From Candidatus Aenigmatarchaeota archaeon (GTDB lineage Archaea; Aenigmatarchaeota; Aenigmatarchaeia; GW2011-AR5), in the NCBI GenBank assembly GCA_043803505.1, contig JAZDJX010000009.1, forward strand, positions 1 through 35,976: 35,976 bases of DNA, in the 5' to 3' direction. Under the pieces are notes generated by a model. The model was not told where the DNA came from, ran no database searches, and saw only the letters and a program-made list of their open reading frames with translations. Of the stretch, positions 3,652 through 35,536 are shown piece after piece (the stretch's first letter is position 1; every line of letters begins with the position of its first letter). Both the position numbers and the translations under genes were made by a program.

Positions 3652-5871
3652 GTGATAATTTTCAAGAAAAAAGCAGGCAAAAAAGGAAATATTAGGGATG
3701 CTGCTGAGGATGAAAAGAATCGTGTTTTTTTAAACAATGAAAAAATTCTTATAACATCAGCCCTGCCGTATGTCAACGGCATAAAGCATCTTGGTAATAT
3801 TATAGGTTCTCTGCTGCCAGCAGACATATTCCACAGGTTCCTTGATTTGATCGGCATAGAAAACATCTACATATGCGGCACAGACGAACATGGAACGGCA
3901 ATAGAGATAGCAGCTCTTGAAGAGGGCATCACACCAAAGGAATACGCTGACAAATATTATGAGCTCCAGAAAAGAATTTATGAAAAATGGGGTTTTGACT
4001 TTACATATTTTGGCAGGACATCATCTCCTGCCCACCATGAGCTGACAAAAAACATATTTACTGCCATATTCAAGGCAGGGTATATAAAAAAAGAGTCGGT
4101 CACACTTCCATACTGCAGAAATTGCCGAAGGTTTTTGCCAGACAGGTTTGTTTTGGGCGAATGTCCGAAATGTAAATATCAAAGCGCGCGCGGAGACCAG
4201 TGCGAAAGCTGCTCTGCAGTGCTCGATCCAACTGAACTGAAAAATTCATTGTGCTCTGTATGCAAAAAAAGCGAAATAGAATTCAGGCAGGAAGAGCATC
4301 TGTTTCTTGACCTCTTGAAATTGCAGCCAAAACTGGAAAATTGGCTGAAGAAGAACAACCACTGGCCTTCAAATGTCAGGAACATTGCGCTTGGGTGGCT
4401 AAATGAAGGATTGAAACCGAGATGCATCACAAGAAACCTTTCGTGGGGAGTTGCTGTTCCTCTTACAGGCTATCACCATCTTGTTTTCTACGTGTGGTTT
4501 GACGCACCCATAGGATACATATCATTCACAATGGAAGGTGAACAGAAAAAGCTGCTGACGAATGCTGATAAATGGTGGTCAGATGCAAAGATATATCATT
4601 TTCTTGGAAAGGACAACATACCATTCCATACTGTTTTCTGGCCAGCAATCCTGATTGCATCATCAAGAACAGAAAGCCTTCCATATTATGTGGCTGGATA
4701 TGAGTACCTAAACTGGCAGGGAGAGAAATTTTCAACAAGCCGCGGCATTGGCTTATTCAGCGACGAGGCGCTTGAGCTCTTTCCTATTGACTACTGGCGC
4801 TACTATCTCTCTAGGATAATGCCTGAAAATAAGGACAGTAATTTTGACTGGGATGATTTCAGGAGCAAGATAAACAACGAGCTCATTGCAAATTATGGTA
4901 ATTTGTTTTACCGTGTCACGTCGTTTATTCATTCCAACATAGGAAGCGTGCCTGAGCCGGGAAAGATAGGAAAAGAAGAAAAAGAAATAGAGAAATTTTT
5001 TATTGCCACCTGCGGTGAAATAGAGAAACTGACAAAAGAAGTTAAGCTCAAGGAAGCTCTCGAAAGAACAATGACACTTGCCTCTGCTGCAAACAGATAT
5101 TTCCAGGAAAAGAAGCCGTGGAAAACTTTTTCTGCTGACCGAAAAGATGCGTGCACAACGTTATATTATTCAGTAAACCTTGTCCGTATAATATCAACGC
5201 TGCTGCTGCCGTATATACCAACCAGTGCACAAAAAGCGATAGATGCGCTAGGCATAAAAGAAAAAAAATGGAAATTTGACTTTTCTGTCAAGCCAGGACA
5301 ATATGTGAAGCCTGTCATACTTTTCAAGAAAATTGACGATGCTGAGATCAAAAAAGCCGTTTCATACAAGACAAAATACGCAAAAAAAGAGATAGCAGAA
5401 AAAGGCATAAAGGAAATGCCATACCCGGAGATTGTCACTGGTTCAATAACAAGCGTAGAAGATCATCCTGATGCAGAAAAACTTTATGTGATTAGGGTAA
5501 ACATTGGCTCAAGCGAACGACAAATAGTTTCAAGCCTGAAGGATTCACACACCAAGGACGAGCTGGACGGAAAACAGATTCTTATGCTGATAAACCTGAA
5601 GCCGGCAAAGTTTCGCGGAATTGTCAGCGATGGGATGCTGCTTGCCTGCGATGATGACACGCTGCTAGTGCCGAAATACGAGATAAAAAATGGCACTGTC
5701 ATTCAGAAAGGCTCGGGACAGCTGAAGGCAATCGATTTCAGCAGCCATGATTTTCATATTGAAATGCACAACGGCGAGCAGGTTGCTGTACTGGATGGCT
5801 TGGTGTTGTCGGCTGGCAACGTGCCCATAATACCTGAAAAAAAGGTTAATGATGGGTGTAAGGTGCTTTGA
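3652..5871 (+). CDS. metG: methionyl-tRNA synthetase with C-terminal tRNA-binding (Trbp111/EMAPII-like) domain
   Basis: ILITSALPYVNGIKHLGN (HIGH region), Zn knuckles CPKC...CESC and C..C, KFSTSRG (KMSKS). The C-terminal segment ITSVEDHPDAEKLYV marks the tRNA-binding domain. The start is uncertain: in-frame TTG 3547 or GTG 3652 (see finding). Confidence 0.9.
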   Translation: MIIFKKKAGKKGNIRDAAEDEKNRVFLNNEKILITSALPYVNGIKHLGNIIGSLLPADIFHRFLDLIGIENIYICGTDEHGTAIEIAALEEGITPKEYADKYYELQKRIYEKWGFDFTYFGRTSSPAHHELTKNIFTAIFKAGYIKKESVTLPYCRNCRRFLPDRFVLGECPKCKYQSARGDQCESCSAVLDPTELKNSLCSVCKKSEIEFRQEEHLFLDLLKLQPKLENWLKKNNHWPSNVRNIALGWLNEGLKPRCITRNLSWGVAVPLTGYHHLVFYVWFDAPIGYISFTMEGEQKKLLTNADKWWSDAKIYHFLGKDNIPFHTVFWPAILIASSRTESLPYYVAGYEYLNWQGEKFSTSRGIGLFSDEALELFPIDYWRYYLSRIMPENKDSNFDWDDFRSKINNELIANYGNLFYRVTSFIHSNIGSVPEPGKIGKEEKEIEKFFIATCGEIEKLTKEVKLKEALERTMTLASAANRYFQEKKPWKTFSADRKDACTTLYYSVNLVRIISTLLLPYIPTSAQKAIDALGIKEKKWKFDFSVKPGQYVKPVILFKKIDDAEIKKAVSYKTKYAKKEIAEKGIKEMPYPEIVTGSITSVEDHPDAEKLYVIRVNIGSSERQIVSSLKDSHTKDELDGKQILMLINLKPAKFRGIVSDGMLLACDDDTLLVPKYEIKNGTVIQKGSGQLKAIDFSSHDFHIEMHNGEQVAVLDGLVLSAGNVPIIPEKKVNDGCKVL

Positions 5872-8831: not shown

Positions 8832-9544
8832 CTTTCAACCCTCGCTACCGGAGGAAGCTCTCTTTTATGTTGTGAACGTTCGAACAAGTTTCTAACCTTT
8901 TTGATTATAGCTGGATCAGCACTTTCAGTTTGTCCTCTTAATATTTTATCCAGTGTGTAGTAACCCATTCCAAGATCAGCCTCATCTGTTTGCCCTGGAG
9001 ATAAATCAGCACTTGGTTCTTTACCAATTATTTTTTTAGAAACGCCCAAGAATCTTGCAAGTTCCCATACTTCAGTTTTGTACAAATCGCCTATTGGCTC
9101 GATATCAACTCCACCATCACCATATTTTGTAAAATATCCTGTTTCCAATTCAGATTTGTTGCTTGTCCCTAGGACCAACATGCCTTTTTCATTTGAAACA
9201 CCATACAATAAACACATTCTGGTACGTGCCATCAGATTTTCCTTTGGTATTTTTTTACTAAAGTGACCTGTATGTTCAAAACTTTCTACAATTGGTTTAA
9301 TATCGATTATTTCATATCCTATTTTCAGTATATTTGCTATTTCGATTGCATCATCTGTATTAGAATTTTTAAAATATGGCATAAGTAAGCCATATACCCT
9401 GTCATTACCAATTGCATTTACACTCAAGTAAGCAACGACAGTGGAATCTAATCCTCCACTTAATCCGATAACTCCTCCATTAAACCCTTCTGTTTTTTCT
9501 CTGATAAAAGATTCTATTGTTTCCGCAACTTTTCTGTAGTCCAT
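8828..9544 (-). CDS. nadE: NH3-dependent NAD+ synthetase
   Basis: PP-loop GLSGGLDSTVVA. Length 238 aa. Strong RBS GAGGAG before the ATG. Confidence 0.88.
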   Translation of the reverse strand: MDYRKVAETIESFIREKTEGFNGGVIGLSGGLDSTVVAYLSVNAIGNDRVYGLLMPYFKNSNTDDAIEIANILKIGYEIIDIKPIVESFEHTGHFSKKIPKENLMARTRMCLLYGVSNEKGMLVLGTSNKSELETGYFTKYGDGGVDIEPIGDLYKTEVWELARFLGVSKKIIGKEPSADLSPGQTDEADLGMGYYTLDKILRGQTESADPAIIKKVRNLFERSQHKRELPPVARVER

Positions 9545-9614
9545 ATTATCTCCTCACTATTTCGCTAATATTTTTTCATATTCGGTATTGACATTAACTG
9601 GGTCATTACAATTT

Positions 9615-10475
9615 TCATTTTTCATATCTTCCTAAATATTCGTGACTTCTGATGTAGTTAACTCCAATCTGTTGACACATACTTCTTATGACATCATCCG
9701 CATTTTTCTCATCACAAAAACCTAATGTTGGAATAAGAAGATGCGTTGCACCATCAGCAATTATGTTTACCTCTGCTTTCGGGAACATCTGCTTTACGCC
9801 ACTGGCAGATTGATAAATACATATACCCATCACAACGCCTGTGTGATTTATTGCAAGATTTTTTCCTAGACCATATTTTTGTTGCAGCAGCGTGAATACA
9901 TTTTCATCGCCAGATGGTATATAATCGAAATTTCTCATCCATTTTGTTGACTTTACAGCTGCCCCATTGAACATGTGCTTGGCATTTATGACATATGGTA
10001 CTGCTCCATCAAGAAATTCTTGCTGATTAAGTTTCAAAGCACCAAACGTCTCTTCAACATCCTTATAACTGAAGCATGGCCGGATATTATGTCTCGATTG
10101 ACTTTCAGTATCATAATCCTGAAAGAAAACATGTCTTGAAACAGACAAACCTACTCGTTTGTCTTTTACAACCTCCTGCAGTTTTAAAGTCAGTTCTGGC
10201 GAGACTGTTTTTTCTTCTGCCACACCCAGTTCATCCAGATTATACCAGTCTTTTCGTACAAGATTATGCACAGGGTACATCCCGCCATTTACAGAGAATT
10301 CAGAACTCGTGCGTGAATGCACATCAGATGAAAATATCCACATATTCCCATACCTTATTACATCTGCTGCCGTATTTTTCTGTTTTTCAGTCGTTCCTGA
10401 ATAAAAGTTTCCATCAAGATCTACAAAGGACTTTCCCCAATCAACCAGATGTTCAACAATAATTTTTCTTGTCAT
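9615..10475 (-). CDS. pncA: nicotinamidase / isochorismatase-family hydrolase (Pnc1-like) with internal insertion
   Basis: VDLDGNF (compare VDMQNDF). SSDVHSRTSSEF...YPVHNLVRKDW resembles yeast Pnc1 RDWHPSRHISF...WPVHCVKNTW. A candidate catalytic Cys lies in GVVMGICIYQ. Confidence 0.6.
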   Translation of the reverse strand: MTRKIIVEHLVDWGKSFVDLDGNFYSGTTEKQKNTAADVIRYGNMWIFSSDVHSRTSSEFSVNGGMYPVHNLVRKDWYNLDELGVAEEKTVSPELTLKLQEVVKDKRVGLSVSRHVFFQDYDTESQSRHNIRPCFSYKDVEETFGALKLNQQEFLDGAVPYVINAKHMFNGAAVKSTKWMRNFDYIPSGDENVFTLLQQKYGLGKNLAINHTGVVMGICIYQSASGVKQMFPKAEVNIIADGATHLLIPTLGFCDEKNADDVIRSMCQQIGVNYIRSHEYLGRYEK

Positions 10476-17804: not shown

Positions 17805-18413
17805 TCAAATAATAACATTCATTCTTCTCAGTCCGACCTTTAGTTGTCTTGGATTCCTGAAATGTATGGCTTTCATGCCTGCTTTTCTTGCGCCAATAAC
17901 ATTTATTTTTGCATCATCTATGAAAACGCATTCGCGCGGCTTTAACTTGAGCCGCTTTGCTGCAAGAAGATAAATATTTTTATCAGGCTTTACCATACCA
18001 ACATCACATGAAAGTATAACAGGATTAAAAAATCTGTAGCGCCGCCTTTTTTTATTGTATGCTACATGGTCCTTTATTGTATTTGAAATCATGACAGTCC
18101 TGTAGCCATTTCTTTTCAGACGGATGGCGATATTTATAACATCTTTTCTCATCCTGCTTTTTACTGCATAATTCCTGAGCCATAATGTAGATGCAAGCTT
18201 TCTGTTATATTTGATACCAAGCTTTCTGGAAACACTTTTCCAGAATTCATATTTGTTTATTTTGCCTTTCATAAATTCTGGCTCTATACAAGAAATTGTA
18301 TATTTCAATTTTCTGATATCAGTTTCCAACATACCTGAAAGATACTTGTATGCCATATTCATGGAATAATCCAGAACAACCCCGCCCATGTCGAATATAA
18401 CTGCTTTTATCAT
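17805..18413 (-). CDS. HAD-superfamily hydrolase (subfamily IA-like)
   Basis: MIKAVIFDMGGVV (DxDx motif I), ISNT, FIDDAKINV. Confidence 0.75.
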   Translation of the reverse strand: MIKAVIFDMGGVVLDYSMNMAYKYLSGMLETDIRKLKYTISCIEPEFMKGKINKYEFWKSVSRKLGIKYNRKLASTLWLRNYAVKSRMRKDVINIAIRLKRNGYRTVMISNTIKDHVAYNKKRRRYRFFNPVILSCDVGMVKPDKNIYLLAAKRLKLKPRECVFIDDAKINVIGARKAGMKAIHFRNPRQLKVGLRRMNVII

Positions 18414-18534
18414 AGCAGATTAGTGTAATACTTTGAATAAAAAGGTTTTTTGAATATCAAGAATTAGTCATGAAAGATTTATAAAAATATAACTCATTAT
18501 TGATTCTAAGGAGATTAAAATGAAGCGGAGAAAA

Positions 18535-18771
18535 TTACTTTTTATACAATTGTTCTCTTCTATCCAGTTCAGCAATTAAATTCTTACGGCGTTGTTCATA
18601 TTCATTTAAAATCTTTTGGTTATATTGTTGGATTCCACCATATTTATCCCATGTTTCTGGACGAGGATGATTTTCATCTACTAATTTACCTCGAAATTCA
18701 TCTTTTAATGTAAACAAAGAATTGATCAATTCTCCAAGAGCCATCTTCTTTATTTCCATTTGTTTTAACAT
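18535..18771 (-). CDS. hypothetical small coiled-coil protein
   Basis: TTTAAATA box about 24 nt upstream of ATG 18771. The longer ORF to 18870 has an implausible hydrophobic N-terminus. Confidence 0.4.
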   Translation of the reverse strand: MLKQMEIKKMALGELINSLFTLKDEFRGKLVDENHPRPETWDKYGGIQQYNQKILNEYEQRRKNLIAELDRREQLYKK

Positions 18772-18937
18772 ATTAGTTAAAAGTAAGAATAAGTATTTAA
18801 ATTTTGTTCTGAAGCAATTGAACTTAATATATATGACTATACAAAGTAAGTACATATTGCATAGTTTCATGAAAAATTACATAATAAAAATTTCAAATCT
18901 ATTTATCTCCTTTAGTCCAATTAATTATTGTGATTTC

Positions 18938-20752
18938 ATGCTTGACTACAAGAAACTTGGCTTGCGTGTTGGGCTTGAGATTCACCAACAGCTTGCCAGC
19001 GGACACAAATTATTCTGCAGGTGCAAAATAGGAAAGAGCGCTGAATTTCCACTTGAGGTGAGGCGAAAACTTCGTCCTGCTGCAGGTGAAACTGGCAGTT
19101 ATGATCCAGCATCAGCATACGAATTCTTGCGAAACAGGGCATTTGTTTACAGGTCAGACCCTCAAACATCGTGCCTGGTTGAACTGGATGATGACCCGCC
19201 AAAAAACATAAATGAAGTTGCCCTTGTTACTGCAATAAAAATATGCAGAATGCTTGGCTGCAATGTTCTTGAAGAACTTCATGTAATGAGAAAAAATGTC
19301 ACTGACGGTAGCTCTGTTTCTGGATTTCAGCGCACAATGCTTATGGGAATTGGAGGAAACATAGAGACAAGCTTTGGCAATGTTGGCATACAAACAGTCT
19401 GCCTGGAAGAGGATTCAGCGCCTGTGCTAAAAAAAACTGGTGATGCCATAGAATACAGACTTGACAGGTTGGGAATTCCTCTTGTTGAAATAGCGACTTT
19501 GCCTTCTTTACATTCTCCTGAACAGGTTAGGGAAACTGCTGAAAAAATGGGTGTGTTGCTTCGCAGCGTTGATGTTGTGCGCGGCATAGGCTCAATCAGA
19601 CAGGATGTGAACATTTCAATAGAAGATGGCTCGCGCGTGGAAATAAAAGGGTTTCAGGAACTGGAAAAAATTGAAAAGGTTGTTGAAAACGAGGTCACAA
19701 GACAGGTCAGCCTTCTGGAGATACGAAATGAACTCCACAAGCGCGGTGTAAAGCAAATCGATTCCATCATCGTTGATGCTACAGATATTTTTGCTGCAAC
19801 AAAATATGATTTCATAAGAAAGATTATTGATAATGATGGAATTGTCTTGGCATGCAGCTTCCCATTTTCCGGTTTAATGGGAAAACAATGTGGTGACAGA
19901 ACATTTGGCAAGGAACTATCAGGCTATGCCGAAGCATATGGCTATGGGCTGACACATAGCGAGGAAGCTGAAAAATACAAGCTGACAAATGAATTTGAAC
20001 AGCTGAAAAGAGAGCTAAAGACTGGAGATAGGGGTGTCATAATTATTTTTGCTGGCGAAGATCCAAGAAACGCAGCAAATGCTGTTGTTAGCCGTGCAAA
20101 AGAATGTTTGAATGGCGTGCCAGAAGAGACAAGGGTTTCAGATGACATTGGCTCGAAATACACGCGTCCTTTGCCCGGCTCTGACAGAATGTATCCTGAA
20201 AGCGATATACAGCCAATATCAACAAGAAAATATGAAAACATTGAAACACCAAAAACATTGATTGAAAAAGCGGATGAGCTGAAGAAGAGACTGCCAAATG
20301 AAATTGTTTCCCAGCTTATTTCATCACAGTCATTTCCTCTCTTCGAGGAATTCAGCGAAAAATTTAATATTGATCCGCTTGTTGTTGCGAGAACACTTCT
20401 GTTTACGCTCAAAGAGCTGAAAAGAGGCGGCGTTCCAATAGAAAATATATCAAAATCTGATATTGCAAAGCTATTTGGCCTGCTCGAGGAATCAAAAATA
20501 ACAAAACAGTCGCTGCCAAAAATTCTTGAACTGCTTGCCAAAGGAGAAAAGCTTGAGACAGCTGCTGCGAAGTTTGCAGCCCTCGCAGAAGAAGGAATAA
20601 TTAAAATAATCGAAGATATCATGCTGGAAAATCCTAACAAGAGCGAGCCTGTTCTCATGGGACTGATAATGAATCGTCTTCAGGGACGGGCTGATGGCGA
20701 AACTGTGATGAAGATATTGAGAAAGCTGGTTTCTGAACGATCCGGTATCTGA
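18938..20752 (+). CDS. gatE: Glu-tRNA(Gln) amidotransferase subunit E
   Basis: MLDYKKLGLRVGLEIHQQL N-terminus. About 604 aa with a GatB/YqeY-like C-terminal tail. The upstream in-frame extension to 18722 is rejected. Confidence 0.88.
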   Translation: MLDYKKLGLRVGLEIHQQLASGHKLFCRCKIGKSAEFPLEVRRKLRPAAGETGSYDPASAYEFLRNRAFVYRSDPQTSCLVELDDDPPKNINEVALVTAIKICRMLGCNVLEELHVMRKNVTDGSSVSGFQRTMLMGIGGNIETSFGNVGIQTVCLEEDSAPVLKKTGDAIEYRLDRLGIPLVEIATLPSLHSPEQVRETAEKMGVLLRSVDVVRGIGSIRQDVNISIEDGSRVEIKGFQELEKIEKVVENEVTRQVSLLEIRNELHKRGVKQIDSIIVDATDIFAATKYDFIRKIIDNDGIVLACSFPFSGLMGKQCGDRTFGKELSGYAEAYGYGLTHSEEAEKYKLTNEFEQLKRELKTGDRGVIIIFAGEDPRNAANAVVSRAKECLNGVPEETRVSDDIGSKYTRPLPGSDRMYPESDIQPISTRKYENIETPKTLIEKADELKKRLPNEIVSQLISSQSFPLFEEFSEKFNIDPLVVARTLLFTLKELKRGGVPIENISKSDIAKLFGLLEESKITKQSLPKILELLAKGEKLETAAAKFAALAEEGIIKIIEDIMLENPNKSEPVLMGLIMNRLQGRADGETVMKILRKLVSERSGI

Positions 20753-26270: not shown

Positions 26271-28952
26271 TTATCTCCTCTTCTTCTGCTGGTTGAATAG
26301 TTTTTCAATATCCTTTATTGTATTGATATCTTCCGGTCTTTTTTCGTCTGAACGGATGCGCAACAGTCGTGGGAAGCGAAGCGCATAACCACTTGGGTAT
26401 TTCGGGCTTTTTTGTATCTCCTCATAGCCGACTTCTATTACGAGTCTTGGCTTGACTTTAACGCTCCTGTCATTTTCTTCGATTATGAGCTCTTTTAGTT
26501 TTTTTGTCACTTCCTTAAGTTGCTCGTCGGTCAGTCCTGAACCCATCATGCCTGTTTCCAGAAACTTTTCTCCTTTTCGCGCTGCAAGAAGCAGTGAGCC
26601 AAGATATTCTGCGCGCCTGCCCTCGCCCCATGTGGCACCGGTTATGATTAAATCCAAAGGCTCCATTATAGGCTTTACCTTAAGCCAGAAACCAACACGC
26701 TTGCCTGGCTGATAAATAGCAGAAAGATTTTTTACTATCACGCCTTCCTGTCCGGCAGACAGCGCGGACTTGTAAAATTTCTCAGCATCTTTCAGTGTCT
26801 TTGTTTCTATATGATCCGCAAAGCAAAAGTTTTTTGTCTTCTTTACAACATCATTGAGTTTTTTCCATCGCTCGTGAAGAGGCTTGTGCATCCAATTTTC
26901 TCCATTGATGTAAATTAGTTCAAACAAATTAATCTGAACAGGTATCTCTTTCACCATTCTGTCAATGTCATATTTTCTCTGTATGCGCCGGGACAGTTGC
27001 TGAAAGGGCATTGGTTTGCCGTTCCTGTCAACAGCTAGAACCTCGCCTTCTATGATGCAGGTTTTTGCTTTTATGCACTCCTTGCTCCACTTCACAATTT
27101 CAGGAAACTGGTTTGTGACTTCGTCGAGGCGTCGTGAGAATATTTTTATTTCGCCTGCGTTCTTGTGAATCTGGCAGTTATGAAGAACTGCATTATTTGT
27201 GCAATAGCTTTCATCATCTTCAATTTGCAGATTATATAAACGAATTCTCGGATTAGGTCTTTTGATTTCTTCTTTTTTGAGTATTTTGTAGTATACATAT
27301 TGTCCATCACTAAACGCGTATTTTTTTGATTTTGGAACAATAATTTGATAGTATTCTTTTTTATAATTCTTTCTAGGCATCTTTACCATCATTCTTCTTA
27401 ATCCGAGAGGAATAGAGTGCATAATTCCTATTAACTGCGATAAGGAAGCTAATCTTCTCTCTTGGGTAATTATTTTTATTGTTCCCTGAATAGATTTGTA
27501 TCCATCTGATTCGCTCCATCCACGTAGAAAAGCCTTGAAATTAGATTTATTAATGTTTACAAACCACCAAGGTATTGTTTTCCCATGCCATTCAATTCTA
27601 AAATTTCTAGATAACCAAATACGAAGAGGTTTATCTCTCCAATATATAGAAATGGCATTACTTTTGTGTTTATATTCTGAAATTTCTTTAACCCCAAAAA
27701 TATCTCCAATTATTTTCTTATATTCTCTAATCAAATCCTTGTATTTTGAATTAAATATTAAACCAACCCTTTCGGTATTATGATATTCGTTTGTGAAACC
27801 ATCTCCAATCCAATATCCAAGAAATCTATAAAAATTTTCATCCATATTTATTTCTTTTTTATATCCAGACTCGTCTTCCAAGAGCATTTTATTTGGCAAG
27901 GTTTTATTTTGTAATCTTGGCAGAGAAAAAACAAGCATATCAGTGTTTTGTATATCATCAGAAGTCAACCATAATATTTTTTTTCCCCTTTTGCATAAAA
28001 TTTTATGTTTCTCAGAAATCCTAAATTCATTACCCATGTAAGACTGAAAACGGTATATTTTTTCATTTTTATCAATTATTCTCTTGTTTATTGCTATAAC
28101 TTTTTTGAATCTCCCCCTGTGGGTGAGGACACTATCTCCAACCCTCACATCTTTAACAGATTTCAAGCCATGGGGATTTGTATAAATTGCCGTATTTCCT
28201 GCAATGCAACGAAAGCCGTCATATTTAAATTCAAGAGCTGGCTCTTCAAATTTTTTCAGTGCTGTTTCCAGGTCAGGACTGCGATCTGCCAGCATGACGC
28301 GGACAGGCCGGCCGACCACAATCTTGGCTTTCATTTTTCCCTTCTTTGCCATTTCTGCCACATAACCGAAATCACCCATAACATCAAAACTTTTTTCGAC
28401 TTCCTTTGGCTCTTTGCCGAACGCCTTTGCTATAGCGTCGCGGACAATGCCTGCTGCAACGCCCATACGCATGTCACCCAGAATCGTCCGCACAATATAT
28501 TTTGCTTCCTTTGGGTCAGCAGAAGAAAGCAACTCTGATACAAGCGATATTTTACGCTCCTGCGAGCCCTTACCAAAAATTTCAGGTAGCTTCCGCAGAT
28601 TGTCAAAAACAAGGTCAATAGTCAGCTCTTTGTGAACAAGGGCTCTCTGCTTCCTATTTGATGAAAAAAATTCAGCTGTCAGCCCAAGGTCGCCGTTTTC
28701 CTTGAATTTTTTCATCATCTCTGCATCACTGGTGCCTGTGTTTTTTGCAATAATGCGCTTAACCAGCTCTGCAGCAATGCCCAAGTCAAGCTCTCCAGCT
28801 GAATAAATAGTGCCCATGGAAAGAAGCACAACCTTATACAAGTCTTGTGTAGGGCAATCACGATAAAAGTCGGCAAGTATGTCGCGCTTCTCGAGCTTTT
28901 TTGTTGTTGCTTCGAGCTTCTCGTAGAGATCAGCCAGTTTTTTGTAAAGCAT
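26271..28952 (-). CDS. lig: ATP-dependent DNA ligase precursor containing one intein
   Basis: Motif I EFKYDGFR is followed, after the insert, by CQIHK. Also EGEVLAVD, EGVIVK, FWLKVKP. The extein sum is 549 aa. Confidence 0.92.
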   Translation of the reverse strand: MLYKKLADLYEKLEATTKKLEKRDILADFYRDCPTQDLYKVVLLSMGTIYSAGELDLGIAAELVKRIIAKNTGTSDAEMMKKFKENGDLGLTAEFFSSNRKQRALVHKELTIDLVFDNLRKLPEIFGKGSQERKISLVSELLSSADPKEAKYIVRTILGDMRMGVAAGIVRDAIAKAFGKEPKEVEKSFDVMGDFGYVAEMAKKGKMKAKIVVGRPVRVMLADRSPDLETALKKFEEPALEFKYDGFRCIAGNTAIYTNPHGLKSVKDVRVGDSVLTHRGRFKKVIAINKRIIDKNEKIYRFQSYMGNEFRISEKHKILCKRGKKILWLTSDDIQNTDMLVFSLPRLQNKTLPNKMLLEDESGYKKEINMDENFYRFLGYWIGDGFTNEYHNTERVGLIFNSKYKDLIREYKKIIGDIFGVKEISEYKHKSNAISIYWRDKPLRIWLSRNFRIEWHGKTIPWWFVNINKSNFKAFLRGWSESDGYKSIQGTIKIITQERRLASLSQLIGIMHSIPLGLRRMMVKMPRKNYKKEYYQIIVPKSKKYAFSDGQYVYYKILKKEEIKRPNPRIRLYNLQIEDDESYCTNNAVLHNCQIHKNAGEIKIFSRRLDEVTNQFPEIVKWSKECIKAKTCIIEGEVLAVDRNGKPMPFQQLSRRIQRKYDIDRMVKEIPVQINLFELIYINGENWMHKPLHERWKKLNDVVKKTKNFCFADHIETKTLKDAEKFYKSALSAGQEGVIVKNLSAIYQPGKRVGFWLKVKPIMEPLDLIITGATWGEGRRAEYLGSLLLAARKGEKFLETGMMGSGLTDEQLKEVTKKLKELIIEENDRSVKVKPRLVIEVGYEEIQKSPKYPSGYALRFPRLLRIRSDEKRPEDINTIKDIEKLFNQQKKRR
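27177..28208 (-). mobile_element. intein (344 aa) with LAGLIDADG homing-endonuclease domain
   Basis: Starts CIAGNT and has block B VLTHRG. LAGLIDADG motifs FLGYWIGDGFT and FLRGWSESDGY. Ends VLHN with Cys at +1. Confidence 0.9.
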
Positions 28953-29876: not shown

Positions 29877-30056
29877 TTATTCCTGAATATCCCAGTCAAC
29901 AAACCGTTTCATCAATATTGCAACAATTACGGCAAGCAGCGAAAGCATACTCATAACATACTGTCCGTCAAGAAGAGCAGTTATGAAATTAGAGAATATT
30001 ATGCCGCTTAGGAATGTTATTACTATGGATATCTTTTCCGAGAGTTTGCGTTTCAT
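29877..30056 (-). CDS. possible 59-aa two-TM membrane peptide (below the ORF-track cutoff)
   Basis: Translated by hand as MKRKLSEKISIVITFLSGIIFSNFITALLDGQYVMSMLSLLAVIVAILMKRFVDWDIQE. It starts 25 nt downstream of the C39-like gene. No clear RBS. Confidence 0.3.
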   Translation of the reverse strand: MKRKLSEKISIVITFLSGIIFSNFITALLDGQYVMSMLSLLAVIVAILMKRFVDWDIQE

Positions 30057-30081
30057 AAATATCTATTGAGGTTTTTGGTAT

Positions 30082-30771
30082 TTAAGCCTTGTTTTCTACC
30101 ATCTGAGTTCCTGATTGTATACCATCTACAATTATAATTCCATGATCGAACCAGCATAAATCACGTGCAGACTCAAATAATTTTTTATTTGTTTTTCTAT
30201 TTGGCATAGCGCTCTTTGGACCACTATCATGATACCAAACATTTTCATCATTCATGGAAGTTATAACACCATAGTGTCCCTTATAGCTGTTATCACGCCC
30301 ATCAAGAATATCGATATTAAACAAGAAAATTATTGGATTTTTATTTTCAAATTCTTGTGTAAGTTCTTGAAACGTCAGCCGTTTTTCTATGGTTTTATTT
30401 GAGTGTTTTATATCCTCAATGGCAGTTTTGACAGCACTAAAATTTGTATGCTCAATCATCCAATCAGCACGTTGTGCACAAAATGATTTTATTTTTTCAA
30501 CAGGGTCATTTTTAAGATATTCATCCAAACCATTTTCTCTGATGAAATATCTGAAATTTAACCCAAGCTCTAGAAATCCTTTTGCAATTTGTACAGGATA
30601 AGTAATTTCATCATCGTGCCTATCTGTAATATCATCAAGTTTTCTAAAAGAAAAATCTCCTTTATGACAAGTGTATTTTAACACGCTTTTCATGGTTGCT
30701 TGGGCACAGCGATATCCACGATTATGATAAAATGGTATATCAAGTAACATTACATCACCAGCAGTAAACAT
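30082..30771 (-). CDS. stand-alone peptidase C39-like (papain-fold cysteine peptidase) domain protein
   Basis: IPFYHNRGYRCAQATMKSVLKY (catalytic Cys region) and KGHYGVITSMNDENVWYHDSG (His plus acidic residue region). ATAAAAATAT box lies 27 nt upstream of ATG 30771. The ORF track opens at TTG 30786. Confidence 0.6.
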   Translation of the reverse strand: MFTAGDVMLLDIPFYHNRGYRCAQATMKSVLKYTCHKGDFSFRKLDDITDRHDDEITYPVQIAKGFLELGLNFRYFIRENGLDEYLKNDPVEKIKSFCAQRADWMIEHTNFSAVKTAIEDIKHSNKTIEKRLTFQELTQEFENKNPIIFLFNIDILDGRDNSYKGHYGVITSMNDENVWYHDSGPKSAMPNRKTNKKLFESARDLCWFDHGIIIVDGIQSGTQMVENKA

Positions 30772-30835
30772 GTCTCTATCAAACAAAAAATCTGTCGATA
30801 TTTTTATCTAATTGTGTGTCATATCTTTTTCCGTT

Positions 30836-31039
30836 TCAATATCTTGCTCCAATTGACAGTACTCTGCTTACATGCTCACAGCAAGGCTGTACATTATCCC
30901 TATGACTGCTATATTTTTCTCTATGCTCTATCATTCTATATTTTATAATTTGATTCAATAATGGATTTTGTATTCTGTCCATACTAATCCTATATCCTAA
31001 AGCTTCAACAACTTCACTAGGTTTTTCACTTTCAGACAT
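30836..31039 (-). CDS. 67-aa protein, candidate precursor peptide or maturase partner
   Basis: GGAGGTGA lies 9 nt upstream of the ATG. The ATG overlaps the maturase stop by 8 nt (ATGTCTGA). The C-terminal region is QPCCEHVSRVLSIGARY. Confidence 0.6.
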   Translation of the reverse strand: MSESEKPSEVVEALGYRISMDRIQNPLLNQIIKYRMIEHREKYSSHRDNVQPCCEHVSRVLSIGARY

Positions 31040-32147
31040 GCTCAGTTCTCACCTCCGCTTTTTTTAATTCTCTGCGAAGAGCATCACCGATATGTTGAAA
31101 CATAATTTTATAACCGGCACAATAATAATCTCTTGTGTTAATATCATTATTAAATGCATATGCGTTATGAACACAACCAGAATTACATATTTTTTTATAT
31201 TCACATGGTTGGCATGCTTTAGTTTCTTCGTCTCTTTTTATTAAATACTGACTGATTGGAGATTTCATAATTTTAGTTAAATCGTCTTCATTTATATTCC
31301 CAAGATTAAATGCAGAATCACCATGGAATCTCCCGCATGGATAGACGTTACCCTCTGGTCCAATTGACAAAAATTCACTTATACAAGATTCTGAGAAAGT
31401 GCAGCAACCTAATTGGCTGTCTGCCAATACGTTTCCAATTACCAAATCCAATGGGTTAACATTGATCCTATGTTCTTTTTCATAAAACCACATATCAAAT
31501 AATTTATTCATGGCATAGCCATATTCTTCAGGACTTACTAATAAATCATTTTGACTGTACTTTGTACGACCTGCACAGCTTAACGAGTTCACTTTTAGAT
31601 TTATTCCATTATCTCGAAAAAACTGGTATATTTCTTCCACATGGTTAACATTTCTTTTTGTCAGAATTGATATTGCTCCACTACCAATTTTTTTTTCTGA
31701 TACGAGTTTAACGGCTTTCATAACATCTTTAAAGCTTCCTTTCCCATTTTTGTATGGTCTGGCTGAATTGTGAATCCATTCCGGACCATCCAAACTTAAC
31801 CCCACATAAAAGTTATATTTTTGAAAGAAGTCAGCAAGATCCTCTGTTAACAAAGTTCCATTAGTTTGTATTGAATTTGCTATTTTATGATCTGAAAAAT
31901 TACTTTCAATATCAACAATTTCTCTATAGAAATCAAGACCGAGAAGCAACGGTTCGCCACCATGCCAAATAAAACGTGCTTCGTCATCCTTATCGCTGAA
32001 CTCTAAAACCTTCTCGATAGACTTTTTCAGTGTTCTGGAATCCATTATCCCAGATTCGGTTTTTTCATCTACATAACAATATTCACATGCTAAATTACAG
32101 GCATGTGTAGGTTTCATTATTACTGTAAAAGTCATAAAAGAGACCAT
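31032..32147 (-). CDS. radical SAM/SPASM-domain maturase (anSME-like peptide-modifying family)
   Basis: CNLACEYC, GGEPLL, QTNGTLL, SLDGP. The Cys-rich C-terminus reads GCCTF..C...YPCG...CQPCEYKKICNSGC...YYCAGYK. Confidence 0.85.
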   Translation of the reverse strand: MVSFMTFTVIMKPTHACNLACEYCYVDEKTESGIMDSRTLKKSIEKVLEFSDKDDEARFIWHGGEPLLLGLDFYREIVDIESNFSDHKIANSIQTNGTLLTEDLADFFQKYNFYVGLSLDGPEWIHNSARPYKNGKGSFKDVMKAVKLVSEKKIGSGAISILTKRNVNHVEEIYQFFRDNGINLKVNSLSCAGRTKYSQNDLLVSPEEYGYAMNKLFDMWFYEKEHRINVNPLDLVIGNVLADSQLGCCTFSESCISEFLSIGPEGNVYPCGRFHGDSAFNLGNINEDDLTKIMKSPISQYLIKRDEETKACQPCEYKKICNSGCVHNAYAFNNDINTRDYYCAGYKIMFQHIGDALRRELKKAEVRTEHV

Positions 32148-32164
32148 TGTAGATATGTTAGAAA

Positions 32165-32174
32165 TTTATTTAAA
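32165..32174 (-). promoter_or_regulatory. TATA box (TTTAAATAAA on minus strand) for the radical SAM/SPASM gene
   Basis: Centred about 23 nt upstream of ATG 32147, giving leaderless geometry. Confidence 0.35.
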
Positions 32175-32265
32175 CCGTTAGTGGGATTATCGACTCAAAG
32201 TCAGATGTTAATTATTATTGTTGGTTCTCTGATTTTTGAAATAATTATAGGCTAAATATATTGTC

Positions 32266-32475
32266 TTAAGCCTTCTTGTCAGCCGCGTTCACTGCTGCTG
32301 AGATGAATAGCGCAGAGCCAAGCACAACCAAAACAAATGAAACAAATACAGAAGTACCGAATGTGAATGTTGTAGTGCCTTCTGCCCACTCTATATTGCC
32401 TGCCATGAGTGCGCCTGTAAAAAAGAATATGGCTCCCAGAAGCCATAAACCATGAACATAGATGTCAAAATTCAT
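32266..32475 (-). CDS. small membrane protein (2 TM)
   Basis: LWLLGAIFFFTGALMAG and VFVSFVLVVLGSALFISAAV. Start at ATG 32475, or at GTG 32481. Confidence 0.5.
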   Translation of the reverse strand: MNFDIYVHGLWLLGAIFFFTGALMAGNIEWAEGTTTFTFGTSVFVSFVLVVLGSALFISAAVNAADKKA

Positions 32476-32549
32476 ATTCACACCATTTTTGAATTATAGT
32501 AACTACTACATAGTAAAGCTTTAAAAAGGTTACTCCGAATAGAAAACGC

Positions 32550-33734
32550 CTATCTTTTTTTCCTGCCTTTCTTTGGCTTTGTATGCTTTATTGCCTTTCT
32601 GGCAGGTTTGCCTTCTATTATCGGCCCGAGTGTCTGGACAAACCTGCGGACATACTCGCGTGTCGTTTCTATGTCACGCTGCGATATCTCGCCTATCTTG
32701 TCCTCGTCAAGCATCTTTCGCATGCTTATCACGCGATGAAGAACATCACTAAAATATGCGTCTATTTTGCCTGTGTCTATTAGATAATTTTTTATTGCCT
32801 TTGGCAGATCCTTAGGGTCCTCTGGCAGATTGTCAAGCCTTTTCAGCGCTGCTACAGCAGCCTTTATCATGACCTCGTAATTTTTCTGGACAACGCTTTC
32901 CTTCTTTTTCTTCTGGAGTTGAAGCAATAGCTGTTCCATTCTTGAAACATAGCTTTTGGCTTTTTGTATCATCTCGTCAAGTTCTGTCCCTGTAACATCC
33001 TTTATTTCCTTATGTTCAACCTTTTTTCTGAAATCTATAACCCTTTCAAGGTCAGCAAGATAATTTTCTTCAAGAAGCTTTTGGTCAACAAGATGTTCTT
33101 TTACTTCTGCTGGTGTGTGTTTAGGTGAAGACGGATTCATTCCAAGATACATAAGCACTGCCTGAGATGAGTTGAGCATGGCGTAATACAAATCTTCTGC
33201 TATCATGTATAATTTGGCTGTCTCAACGCGATTGATTTTTTGTGGCGCGGTTTCCATGAATTTTTCAACAGCCTCGAGCGTTGCCGGTATCTTGCCGAAC
33301 TCAAGCAGTTTTCTTATAGGAATGAAAAATCCTGTGTCGTACAATGCCCAGCCGTCTCTCACAATTGTATATAATAGCGGGTGGCCAATCCTTGCCATAT
33401 CCCAGAACTCAGTAAGCGTCCATGCAGGCTGTACTGTAATATTCTCATTTATCTTTTTTGCAATAAAATAAAGCTCGTCATCGAGCCTGTCCTTCATCTC
33501 TGGTGTAAGTCTTGCAACAGTATCGTCAACAATAACAAGCATGTCAATGTCACTTTTTTCGTGAAAGTCTCCCCTTACAAGCGAGCCGAAAAGAACAACC
33601 GCCTTGATAATATTCTTGTATTTCTTCATTACCTCTTCCTTGAACTGCTCTGCCAGCTTAAGCTGTCTTTTCTTGAGTGCTTCACGTTTCTTGTCGGTTT
33701 TCTTTTCATCCATTTTTTTCGTCATTAATACCAT
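32550..33734 (-). CDS. fused minimal nucleotidyltransferase (MNT) plus HEPN-like domain protein
   Basis: FGSLVRGDFHEKSDIDMLVIV (GS...DxD). A downstream helical region carries RKKVEH (Rx4H). Basic, coiled N- and C-termini. Confidence 0.6.
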   Translation of the reverse strand: MVLMTKKMDEKKTDKKREALKKRQLKLAEQFKEEVMKKYKNIIKAVVLFGSLVRGDFHEKSDIDMLVIVDDTVARLTPEMKDRLDDELYFIAKKINENITVQPAWTLTEFWDMARIGHPLLYTIVRDGWALYDTGFFIPIRKLLEFGKIPATLEAVEKFMETAPQKINRVETAKLYMIAEDLYYAMLNSSQAVLMYLGMNPSSPKHTPAEVKEHLVDQKLLEENYLADLERVIDFRKKVEHKEIKDVTGTELDEMIQKAKSYVSRMEQLLLQLQKKKKESVVQKNYEVMIKAAVAALKRLDNLPEDPKDLPKAIKNYLIDTGKIDAYFSDVLHRVISMRKMLDEDKIGEISQRDIETTREYVRRFVQTLGPIIEGKPARKAIKHTKPKKGRKKR

Positions 33735-35026: not shown

Positions 35027-35536
35027 TTATTTAATTTGTTTATAACATTCATCACAGAAACGAATTTCATGTAAAGATGACCAACGAGGACCTGGTATTT
35101 TATTATGTGACATCTCGCACGGATTTAATTGGTCAAAATCATGGTGCTTAAGTCCAAGTGCATGACCTATTTCACCAAATGTTATAGCATTAAAATCAAC
35201 ATCATCTGGGCGGAATTTATACCAAGAATTAAAATAACCATCACTTGATGCTATTGCTCTTTTATTATCACCCCTTCCGTGAATTCGTCCACAATCTCCT
35301 TTCAAATCCATTGAGGTCAAGACAAGGTAAACATCTTTATCAGAGCTAGGTAATCTTTCCATAATTGCACATGCTGGCCAATAGCCAGAACGTATTTTTA
35401 TTCCTCGTGGTCTCATCTCACCATCGTAAGCATATCCTTCAGTAAACTGTTTCTGCATCTGAGGTATTCTAAATAATGAATTTACGGTGGCATCAATACT
35501 ATACGGAAACCACAATTTTCTCACTAAGAGTTTCAT
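35027..35536 (-). CDS. metzincin/archaemetzincin-like zinc peptidase with variant motif
   Basis: GEIGHALGLKHH...NPCEM...(18 aa)...CDEC resembles the archaemetzincin motif HExxHxxGxxxCxxxxCxM...CxxC. Gly replaces the first His. Confidence 0.5.
   Translation of the reverse strand: MKLLVRKLWFPYSIDATVNSLFRIPQMQKQFTEGYAYDGEMRPRGIKIRSGYWPACAIMERLPSSDKDVYLVLTSMDLKGDCGRIHGRGDNKRAIASSDGYFNSWYKFRPDDVDFNAITFGEIGHALGLKHHDFDQLNPCEMSHNKIPGPRWSSLHEIRFCDECYKQIK

Follow-up and report, generated by a model that had tools for sequence, protein, structure and literature searches.

The window analysed here is a whole contig of 35,976 bp from a metagenome-assembled genome of Candidatus Aenigmatarchaeota. Its minus strand carries a cassette of three adjoining genes, which encode a radical S-adenosylmethionine (SAM)/SPASM maturase, a peptide of 67 amino acids (aa) and a free-standing C39-like peptidase. 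Taken together, these genes probably form a cassette for a peptide of the ribosomally synthesised, post-translationally modified type (RiPP), in which leader-guided closure of core triplets to three-residue cyclophanes would be followed by cytoplasmic removal of the leader by the C39-like peptidase. The evidence comes from a conserved leader, from triplets of an aromatic and an acidic residue that are strongly enriched in the cores of related precursors, and from the recurrence of the same gene order in other genomes.

Organization of the cassette

The open reading frames (ORFs) and sequence elements of the cassette are the following:

31032-32147, minus strand: radical SAM/SPASM maturase, 371 aa (367 aa in the NCBI annotation), assigned from Pfam and NCBIfam matches and the Cys alignment
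30836-31039, minus strand: predicted precursor peptide, 67 aa, assigned from the leader profile and linkage
30935-31039, minus strand: putative leader region, residues 1-35, from the in-register alignment of leaders
30839-30934, minus strand: putative core region, residues 36-67, MIEHREKYSSHRDNVQPCCEHVSRVLSIGARY, from the core-motif statistics of 15 precursors
31049-31056, minus strand: ribosome-binding site GGAGGTGA of the precursor, inside the 3' end of the maturase gene, read from the sequence
30082-30786, minus strand: C39-like peptidase ORF (234 aa from a TTG codon, 229 aa from the first ATG)
30082-30750, minus strand: the peptidase with its NCBI start (222 aa), which agrees with the starts of homologues
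32166-32174, minus strand: putative TATA-like box TTTAAATAA, candidate promoter of the cassette, about 23 nt upstream of the maturase ATG, recognized by sequence only

According to the ORF listing, all five ORFs of the cassette region, including two small membrane-protein ORFs treated below, are present on the minus strand at the coordinates given for them in the earlier note. Between the maturase stop and the ATG of the precursor (31039-31037) there is an overlap of 8 nt, ATGTCTGA, and GGAGGTGA (31056-31049) sits 9 nt upstream of this ATG; both the overlap and the ribosome-binding site had been reported before and can be read in the sequence. A second A/T-rich TATA-like box, ATAAAAATAT, was read at 30807-30798. 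The NCBI locus tags are V1802_00735 for the peptidase-like gene and V1802_00740 for the 67-aa ORF.

Precursor peptide and its leader

The 67-aa ORF has no match in Pfam or NCBIfam, and a word-index homologue search with it returned only the ORF itself. Relatives of the precursor were found solely by reading the DNA that follows homologous maturases. In 11 other independent loci (L001, L003, L005, L007, L085-L089, L093 and L094), the maturase gene is directly followed by a leader-bearing ORF, and these small ORFs overlap or abut the maturase stop; the one in L089 had no gene call. Locus L095 also has a small ORF at the maturase stop, with a partial leader only. The conserved part of the precursors comprises about 30 N-terminal residues, the remainder varying in sequence and length, and the cores range from 23 to 98 residues. 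Tandem precursor copies follow a single maturase in L005, L085 and L094.

When the 777 six-frame ORFs of the window were searched with a leader profile built without the window sequence, the 67-aa ORF was matched at E=1e-7, the runner-up having an E value of 0.93. When 825 kb of locus DNA was searched with the leader hidden Markov model, only post-maturase ORFs (1e-10 to 1e-15) and a fused maturase ORF were recovered. The leader motif of the window peptide, ...E-A-L-G-Y-R-I-S-M-D-R-I-Q-N-P-L-L-N-Q-I-I-K-Y-R, is in register with the family consensus E-[I/A]-[L/M]-G-[H/Y/L]-x-[I/V]-x4-[I/L]-x-N-[P/R]-x-[L/I]-x-R-x-I-[K/R/S]-x-[R/S], and its score (26.6 bits) is the weakest in the family, relatives scoring 39-55. 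The leader family fits no curated model. A scan of DNA with a strict leader pattern gave no occurrence in viral contigs and a single locus in metagenome contigs.

Because of the conserved leader, the hypervariable repeat core, the tandem copies, the translational coupling and the gene fusions described below, the 67-aa ORF is regarded as a RiPP precursor. Whether it is a precursor or an RRE/PqqD-type protein had been left open in the earlier note, and the conserved leader together with the motif-repeat core speaks for the former. The candidate identity as an RRE/PqqD-type recognition protein was rejected, given that the ORF matches no profile of the winged-helix domain (about 80-90 aa) typical of such proteins and has a variable C-terminal part of motif repeats. 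The former remark that the small ORFs are devoid of a double-glycine motif is true of the window precursor. Its relatives in L001 and L085 are the only two whose leaders end in Arg-Gly-Gly, right before the junction with the core.

After a Pacearchaeota homologue of the maturase (L091), a 170-aa protein is encoded at 4613-5125, which starts with a leader-like ELKNPLLKQIAELY, continues with a Gly/His-rich stretch and ends in a larger domain. This protein may be a long or divergent substrate.

Core motif

The composition of the cores was analysed for 15 precursors with 734 core residues, using 5000 shuffles. Tyr, His, Trp or Phe at position i combined with Asp or Glu at i+2 was observed 103 times against 36.9 expected (z=13.8), a count equalled in none of the 5000 shuffles, and the spacings i+1 and i+3 between an aromatic residue and Asp/Glu are depleted. 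Asp or Glu stands at +2 for 102 of the 149 Tyr, His and Trp residues in the cores, and no other residue is comparably enriched at this position, Gln being so only weakly (z 2.8). The middle residue of the triplet is variable (Ser in 23 of 103, Thr in 15, Gly in 11, Arg in 10, others in the rest), and Cys is rare in the cores (2.2%). Many cores open with a junction of the form Phe-[Leu/Ile/Met]-Phe-x-Tyr-x-Asp. In the window core, His39-Arg40-Glu41 and His46-Arg47-Asp48 are the only triplets.

Triceptides are aromatic1-X2-X3 cyclophanes, in which the ring of residue 1 is joined to the beta-carbon of residue 3 by a radical SAM/SPASM enzyme (PMC11499958). According to PMC11002830, the link formed by YxdB connects Tyr-C3 to Asp-C-beta. 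The apparent grammar of the cores matches the aromatic1-X2-X3 pattern of triceptides.

Maturase

The maturase matches the Radical_SAM (81.3 bits) and SPASM (39 bits) families of Pfam. In the alignment with 31 relatives, both the CX3CX2C motif (C17, C21, C24) and the eight auxiliary-cluster Cys (C249, C255, C271, C312, C315, C321, C325 and C343) are invariant. A PDB search gave anSMEcpe, one of the anaerobic sulfatase-maturating enzymes (anSME), as the nearest solved structure (E=3e-45); the auxiliary Cys of the maturase pair one-to-one with C255, C261, C276, C317, C320, C326, C330 and C348 of this enzyme, for which the Aux I and Aux II cluster ligands are listed in PMC5715301. Since the SAM-motif Cys and the eight Aux I/Aux II ligand Cys are aligned and invariant, the maturase is, as judged from these residues, a complete three-cluster SPASM protein, in agreement with the earlier description of a 371-aa radical SAM enzyme with a full SPASM Cys set.

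Among the curated NCBIfam families, the top score was obtained for DynA (NF041298, dynobactin maturase), with 333.9 bits over profile positions 1-354 of 356, though this is under the cut-off of 450. DynA is the best curated match for seven of the nine such maturases scanned, that of the window among them. The anSME family (TIGR03942) gave 279.8 bits against a cut-off of 349.45, TIGR04083 gave 210 against 300, GrrM/OscB 174 against 310, PapB 163 bits, YhhB 157 against 445, QhpD 134.5 against 453, XyeB 111 against 450 and FxsB 104 against 370.

The clade to which the maturase belongs is marked by the signature Pro-Cys271-Gly-Arg-Phe, where Cys271-Gly272-Arg273 replaces Cys276-Asp277 of anSMEcpe. 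Asp277 has reportedly been proposed as the catalytic base of anSMEcpe by Goldman et al. 2013. The 120 closest maturase homologues include 96 with Cys-Gly-Arg-[Phe/Trp/Tyr/Leu/Ser], about 110 with Gly at position 272 and one with Asp after the Cys. Meanwhile Cys-Asp-[His/Lys]-[Phe/Tyr] dominates in typical anSME-like loci, e.g. those of Bacteroidales, as seen in 80 more distant genomic loci; this contrast set consists mostly of distant anSME-like loci among the matches listed in a scan of the genome collection with the maturase alignment. The Cys-Gly-Arg-Phe signature tracks peptide-carrying loci. By sequence DarE is closest to anSME, and the same model picks it up, although its products are cyclophanes (PMC10288494, PMC10705402); likeness to anSME in sequence therefore need not mean anSME chemistry.

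Three other identities were considered for the maturase and rejected. As an anSME it scores below the TIGR03942 cut-off, has Gly272-Arg273 in place of Asp277 and has its predicted substrate encoded next door; no sulfatase-like ORF with a Cys/Ser-x-Pro/Ala-x-Arg motif was found in the 36-kb contig by a regular-expression scan of the six-frame translation. The QhpD assignment was rejected on its score of 134.5 bits against 453 and on the cores, which are poor in Cys and in which an aromatic residue at i-2 is conserved as the partner. A sactipeptide or ranthipeptide synthase was rejected because Cys is rare in the cores, aromatic residues and Asp/Glu being constrained instead. Consequently, of the earlier placement among anSME, sactipeptide, ranthipeptide and QhpD enzymes, the SPASM maturase stands and those particular families do not; the assignment is narrowed to the cyclophane branch (triceptide, darobactin/dynobactin). 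The possibility raised earlier that the enzyme is a bona fide sulfatase or quinohemoprotein maturase is countered by the scores under both cut-offs, the Gly-Arg in place of Asp277 and the adjoining substrate.

C39-like peptidase

The peptidase carries the motifs YRCAQATM and KGHYGV. In the numbering of the 222-aa form, the catalytic Cys15 is encoded at 30706-30708 and His159 at 30274-30276, the third triad position being Asp175. The Pfam matches are marginal: the 234-aa form scores 24.7 bits with Peptidase_C39_2 (threshold 24) and 21.5 bits with Guanylate_cyc_2, and for the 222-aa form Guanylate_cyc_2 is the only match (21.8 bits, threshold 28.1). The sole word-index relative is P0123, with 36% identity. 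A two-sequence profile, run against 1.84 billion representatives, recovered 362 proteins when the limit was set at E<=1e-3, of which 149 reached E<=1e-10, and nearly all of the 150 best members are free-standing proteins of about 200-235 aa. This family of about 360 sequence clusters is unnamed and has no curated model.

In 60 members of the family, Cys15 and His159 are the sole invariant columns; position 175 is occupied by Asp, Glu or Asn in 55 of them, and Asn stands 5 residues before the catalytic Cys in 44. Pfam matches of the same 60 proteins are to Guanylate_cyc_2 (47), Peptidase_C39_2 (35), DUF3335 (30) and Peptidase_C39 (15). A PDB search with the single peptidase sequence gave no significant match; with the family profile, the C39-like protein 3erv and the peptidase domain of ComA were recovered at about 7e-6, with both catalytic motifs aligned. 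A two-sequence AlphaFold model (pLDDT 66) gave weak fold matches and was replaced by an AlphaFold2 model from the 60-sequence alignment (pLDDT 95, pTM 0.91), for which the top Foldseek folds are PeiR, PCAT1, ComA (TM-score on target 0.75) and LahT150.

As modelled, the peptidase is a papain-fold, C39-like protein that lacks a transporter domain and is extended by a helical insert about 70 residues long. The stand-alone C39-like peptidase with Cys and His motifs that had been recognized earlier is thus borne out by the aligned invariant dyad, the C39-clan profiles and the C39-like fold. The absence of fusion to an ABC transporter, also pointed out earlier, extends from the window to nearly all of the 150 best family members, and the ORF listing contains no ABC gene in the cassette.

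Recurrence of the cassette in other genomes

The order maturase, small ORF(s), peptidase was also found in L001, L005, L007, L093, L094 and L095, so that in all seven peptidase-bearing loci, the window included, the peptidase directly follows the maturase and the precursor. Four of these loci were reached via peptidase homologues, and all four have a maturase and a small ORF directly upstream: L001 (retrieved with P0123; peptidase E 6e-115 to the family profile), L093 (P0124; 3.5e-63), L094 (P0130; 1.2e-50) and L095 (P0145; 3.3e-33). According to the profile scan, three of the 10 leader-bearing loci reached via maturase or leader have the peptidase, namely the window, L005 and L007. Assembly GCA_053536475.1 contains both L094, with two precursors and the peptidase, and L087, with one precursor and no peptidase, which suggests that a single peptidase can serve both loci in trans. 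The hosts of the family are mostly archaeal, belonging to DPANN groups and, in one case, to Asgard archaea.

The occurrence of the trio elsewhere, proposed as a check in the earlier note, is documented by this shared gene order. The view that maturase, short peptide and leader-type peptidase represent the core logic of a RiPP system gains support from the co-occurrence, from the peptidase profiles and dyad, and from the maturase being neither anSME nor QhpD.

Fused and bacterial relatives

Seven of the top 120 maturase homologues (P0030, P0035, P0037, P0043, P0051, P0073 and P0114) are in-frame fusions of maturase, leader and core. These proteins are 467-491 aa long, with a leader-like segment at about 390-415 followed by a tail with 5-12 [Tyr/His/Trp]-x-[Asp/Glu] triplets, and in six of the seven the tail ends in ...Met-Cys. 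The fusions occur in Chloroflexota-type relatives; P0030 is from an Anaerolineales bacterium (L090, 3501-4949), where the neighbouring genes encode a TPR/AAA_16 protein, other radical SAM proteins and an aminotransferase-glycosyltransferase fusion. Among RiPPs, borosins provide a precedent for the fusion of enzyme and substrate, in that case a methyltransferase and its precursor.

In P0093, P0102 and P0103, the maturase is followed by a leader-like segment (e.g. FRGRKVDPARISNRKLARIFRKR) and then by a TPR domain, with no core. P0118 (439 aa) has a leader-like segment and a short tail with almost no triplets. These proteins suggest that the leader-like segment can act as a docking or regulatory tail.

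Triplet-rich small ORFs were additionally noticed beside distant bacterial homologues of the maturase (28-37% identity):

L006, 5097-5387, Kiritimatiellae: triplet-rich small ORF with the same leader
L011, 3806-4000, Bacteroidales: triplet-rich small ORF upstream of the enzyme, without the archaeal leader
L019, 5143-5391, Patescibacteria: triplet-rich small ORF
L021, 3232-3387, Bacteroidales: triplet-rich small ORF upstream of the enzyme, without the archaeal leader
L051, 3832-3981, Christensenella: triplet-rich small ORF upstream of the enzyme, without the archaeal leader

The best curated match of the corresponding maturases is DynA for L006, L011 and L021, and anSME for L019 and L051. Pfam scans of the genes flanking these five loci gave nothing informative. 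The loci may represent the YxD-type triceptide loci of the literature.

Proposed product and alternative explanations

Starting from the observed gene order, coupling, recurrence, shared leader, core triplets, iron-sulphur (Fe-S) motifs and peptidase fold and dyad, the following course of events is proposed. Translation of the 67-aa peptide would begin at the ATG lying within the end of the maturase gene, and the N-terminal leader of the peptide, about 35 residues long, would dock on the radical SAM/SPASM enzyme. In each [His/Tyr/Trp]-x-[Asp/Glu] triplet, a 5'-deoxyadenosyl radical would abstract hydrogen from the beta-carbon of the third residue (Asp or Glu), whose carboxylate may be bound by the clade-specific Arg273. 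The resulting carbon radical would add to the aromatic ring at position 1, with an electron passing to the auxiliary Fe-S clusters; as in triceptides, each triplet would thereby lose 2 Da and close to a three-residue cyclophane. The expected targets in the window peptide are His39-Arg40-Glu41 and His46-Arg47-Asp48. The free-standing C39-like peptidase would finally cut off the leader and, since it has no transporter domain, would do so in the cytoplasm. The product is most likely of the triceptide type, i.e. three-residue cyclophanes close to the Tyr-x-Asp (YxdB) type. We infer both the cleavage site and the carboxylate-binding role of Arg273.

Several observations weigh against this interpretation. 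The cross-link chemistry of the window peptide is a prediction from motif and homology alone, and no named NCBIfam family reaches its cut-off with the maturase, the triceptide synthases YhhB, GrrM/OscB, XyeB and FxsB included. Of the 15 cores, that of the window departs most from the family pattern: it contains only two triplets, has two adjacent Cys residues, is non-acidic in its C-terminal half and lacks the junction. There is also no Gly-Gly in the window leader. The peptidase is absent from seven of the 10 loci reached via maturase or leader and has therefore to be regarded as an optional partner. Moreover, no exporter or immunity gene is evident at the locus, and P0093, P0102, P0103 and P0118 carry the leader-like segment without a typical core.

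A RiPP cassette with a different chemistry is a possible, though considerably less probable, explanation. It could involve a C-O or C-N link like those of darobactin and dynobactin, a thioether between Cys and Asp/Glu of the type formed by QhpD or the ranthipeptide enzymes, or an oxidation or decarboxylation of Asp/Glu or of the frequent middle Ser. DynA, the best curated match, makes a His-Tyr N-C link in addition to a C-C link (PMC10288494), and the outcome of the DarE reaction is under substrate control and extends even to formylglycine formed from Ser (PMC10705402); Ser is also the commonest middle residue of the triplets (23 of 103). A thioether is made conceivable by Cys53-Cys54-Glu55 in the window core and by matches to the QhpD and PapB profiles (134 and 163 bits), but Cys accounts for 2.2% of the core residues. 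The middle residue of the triplet is highly variable, whereas constraint is seen at the aromatic position i and the acidic position i+2, which is the spacing and the logic of triceptides, and PMC11002830 presents the Tyr-C3 to Asp-C-beta link of YxdB as proven. These points favour the cyclophane interpretation.

The atypical features of the window peptide could also mean that this particular copy is decaying or has been neofunctionalised, the enzymes being intact and the core having drifted towards a different product or none. Its 32 core residues contain two triplets, compared with 3-17 triplets in relatives, the conserved junction motif is missing, the leader score of 26.6 bits lies below the 39-55 of the relatives, and a gap of 85 nt precedes the peptidase, which is tightly coupled in related loci. 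Nevertheless, such decay seems unlikely: all catalytic and cluster residues of maturase and peptidase are intact, the precursor gene retains its strong ribosome-binding site and its 8-nt overlap, and two triplets suffice for a product.

That the small ORF encodes no substrate but a detached C-terminal part or an accessory subunit of the radical SAM enzyme, the real substrate being encoded elsewhere, seems rather improbable. Although several relatives carry the corresponding segment as an in-frame fusion with the enzyme, and although this segment precedes a TPR domain in P0093, P0102 and P0103, ends in a short, nearly triplet-free tail in P0118 and, in the window ORF, has no word-index homologue, the C-terminal parts (23-98 residues) are hypervariable and all built of one triplet type. 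Tandem copies behind one enzyme in L005, L085 and L094 and a dedicated peptidase after the small ORF in seven loci are likewise at odds with a subunit, and enzyme-substrate fusion has a precedent in the borosins. That the maturase is an anSME or a similar maturase of full-length proteins with unrelated neighbours is highly improbable, for the TIGR03942 score of 279.8 bits and the proximity to anSMEcpe (E=3e-45) are set against a cut-off of 349.45 bits and a higher DynA score, Gly272 at the position of the Asp277 that anSME-like loci keep (about 110 of the 120 closest homologues share this Gly), the lack of a sulfatase signature in the 36-kb contig and the conserved linkage to a leader-bearing peptide.

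Neighbouring genes and base composition

Two further minus-strand ORFs border the cassette:

29877-30056, minus strand: 59-aa ORF located downstream of the peptidase and predicted to have two membrane helices; membership in the system is not supported
32266-32481, minus strand: 71-aa ORF located upstream of the maturase and predicted to have two membrane helices; membership in the system is not supported

The 71-aa ORF has no match in Pfam or NCBIfam, and the 59-aa ORF has only a weak match to SLATT_4 (17.7 bits, cut-off 55). As BLAST revealed no homologue of either ORF in any related locus, both are set outside the system, and the earlier inclusion of small transmembrane peptides in the locus is not upheld. 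In L088, the precursor is followed by two small ORFs (4866-5030 and 5064-5231) with two predicted membrane helices each, which are of the same type as the 59-aa and 71-aa ORFs and have no sequence similarity to them; an immunity or export role of the L088 ORFs is conceivable but unsupported.

Directly upstream of the cassette, a 394-aa protein with an NTP_transf_2 domain and a weak HepT/HEPN-like C-terminal part is encoded at 32550-33734 (minus strand). A HEPN and nucleotidyltransferase pair follows the L003 cassette (9483-10153), and a Pol-beta-type nucleotidyltransferase gene lies near L001 (911-1507). BLAST of the 394-aa nucleotidyltransferase against all related loci did not reveal it as a conserved partner, and these neighbours may be a coincidence because such modules are abundant in archaea.

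Housekeeping genes for ribosomal protein S3Ae, an intein-bearing DNA ligase and dephospho-CoA kinase flank the cassette. The GC content of the cassette block is 32-34%, compared with about 38% for the window. The block had been described as the most AT-rich stretch; it is not, because the kilobase 18001-19000 is the lowest in GC of the contig (30.3%) and 27001-28000 (32.2%) equals the cassette block. With other kilobases as low or lower in GC, AT-richness is a weak sign of accessory origin.

The ATP-dependent DNA ligase (26271-28952, minus strand) has an insertion of about 340 residues with intein hallmarks, which splits its domains at about residues 250 and 594 and scores 26 bits with Pfam Intein_splicing, under the threshold. 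This intein-like insertion coincides with the low-GC kilobase 27001-28000. A 169-aa ORF at 35027-35536 (minus strand) contains the zinc-binding-type motif HALGLKHH and has a weak match to Peptidase_M10 (16.7 bits); it could be a small metzincin-like protease.

Significance

Radical-SAM RiPPs are well explored in bacteria, and our literature searches found no description of a radical-SAM RiPP system in DPANN archaea. We tentatively put forward, as a proposal held with some reserve, that the cassette belongs to an undescribed cyclophane RiPP family of DPANN archaea and at least one Asgard lineage, which would combine DynA-like cross-linking of His/Tyr/Trp to Asp/Glu, transporter-free release by a C39-like peptidase and, in Chloroflexota-type relatives, self-modifying fusions. 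Tyr-x-Asp triceptides are already known, and no curated model exists for the present leader or peptidase family. His-Asp and aromatic-Glu rings, if made here, have not been characterised before.

DPANN archaea depend on hosts and have tiny genomes, and the retention of a three-gene cassette in such a genome hints that it serves host interaction, competition or metal handling. The family can now be defined by its leader signature, the [Tyr/His/Trp]-x-[Asp/Glu] core rule, the Cys-Gly-Arg-Phe motif as opposed to Cys-Asp of anSME, and the linked peptidase. The signature rule helps to tell peptide cross-linkers from sulfatase maturases, which are confused by sequence similarity alone. The cores offer His-x-Asp, Trp-x-Asp and aromatic-x-Glu triplets as candidate substrates for cyclophane-forming biocatalysts. 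Natural fusions of enzyme and substrate are also pointed out and, if truly such, would amount to a self-modifying radical SAM enzyme analogous to the methyltransferase-precursor fusions of borosins.

Comparison with known systems

The window peptidase resembles the C39 leader peptidases ComA, PCAT1 and LahT150 in its papain fold (Foldseek probability 1.0, TM-score on target 0.70-0.75), in the alignment of its Cys and His with the catalytic residues of ComA, and in the position of its gene next to a leader-bearing peptide gene; further C39-like comparators are 3erv and the Pfam families Peptidase_C39_2, DUF3335 and Guanylate_cyc_2. It differs from the C39 peptidases in lacking an ABC-transporter fusion and in being about 70 residues longer, owing to the helical insert. 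The C39 peptidases have Gln 6 residues before the catalytic Cys, whereas the window family has Asn at Cys-5. Unlike the substrates of C39 double-glycine peptidases, only some of the cognate leaders end in Gly-Gly, that of the window not being among them.

QhpD, likewise a SPASM enzyme, acts within a small polypeptide on the side-chain carbons of Asp and Glu, the partner atom being a Cys sulfur. In the present family, Cys is rare in the cores and the role of conserved partner falls to an aromatic residue at i-2. With anSMEcpe (PDB 4K36/4K37), the maturase shares the three-cluster layout and all eight aligned auxiliary Cys; it differs in having Gly272-Arg273 for Asp277 and, as its presumed partner, a small dedicated peptide rather than a sulfatase.

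DynA is similar to the window maturase in size and architecture and in the adjoining short-peptide gene, the product of which it cross-links through its side chains (PMC10288494). However, the window maturase remains under the 450-bit cut-off for DynA, and the present precursors share nothing with the dynobactin core WNSNVHSYRF. The rings of dynobactin, a product of gammaproteobacteria, join Trp to Asn and His to Tyr, in contrast to the aromatic-x-Asp/Glu triplets found here.

YxdA/YxdB produce a three-residue cyclophane with a Tyr-C3 to Asp-C-beta link, as reported by Sugiyama et al. 2022 and summarised in PMC11002830 and PMC11499958. The present cassette resembles these triceptide systems, compared here by description, in having a radical SAM/SPASM maturase next to a leader-core precursor, in the repeated aromatic1-X2-X3 triplets of the core, which place Tyr or His first and Asp at X3, and in a maturase without an N-terminal peptide-recognition (RRE) domain. 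Unlike YxdA/YxdB, the present family is mostly archaeal (DPANN groups and one Asgard), uses His, Trp and Glu besides Tyr and Asp, has a leader family that matches no curated model and, in a part of its members, is equipped with a free-standing C39-like peptidase.

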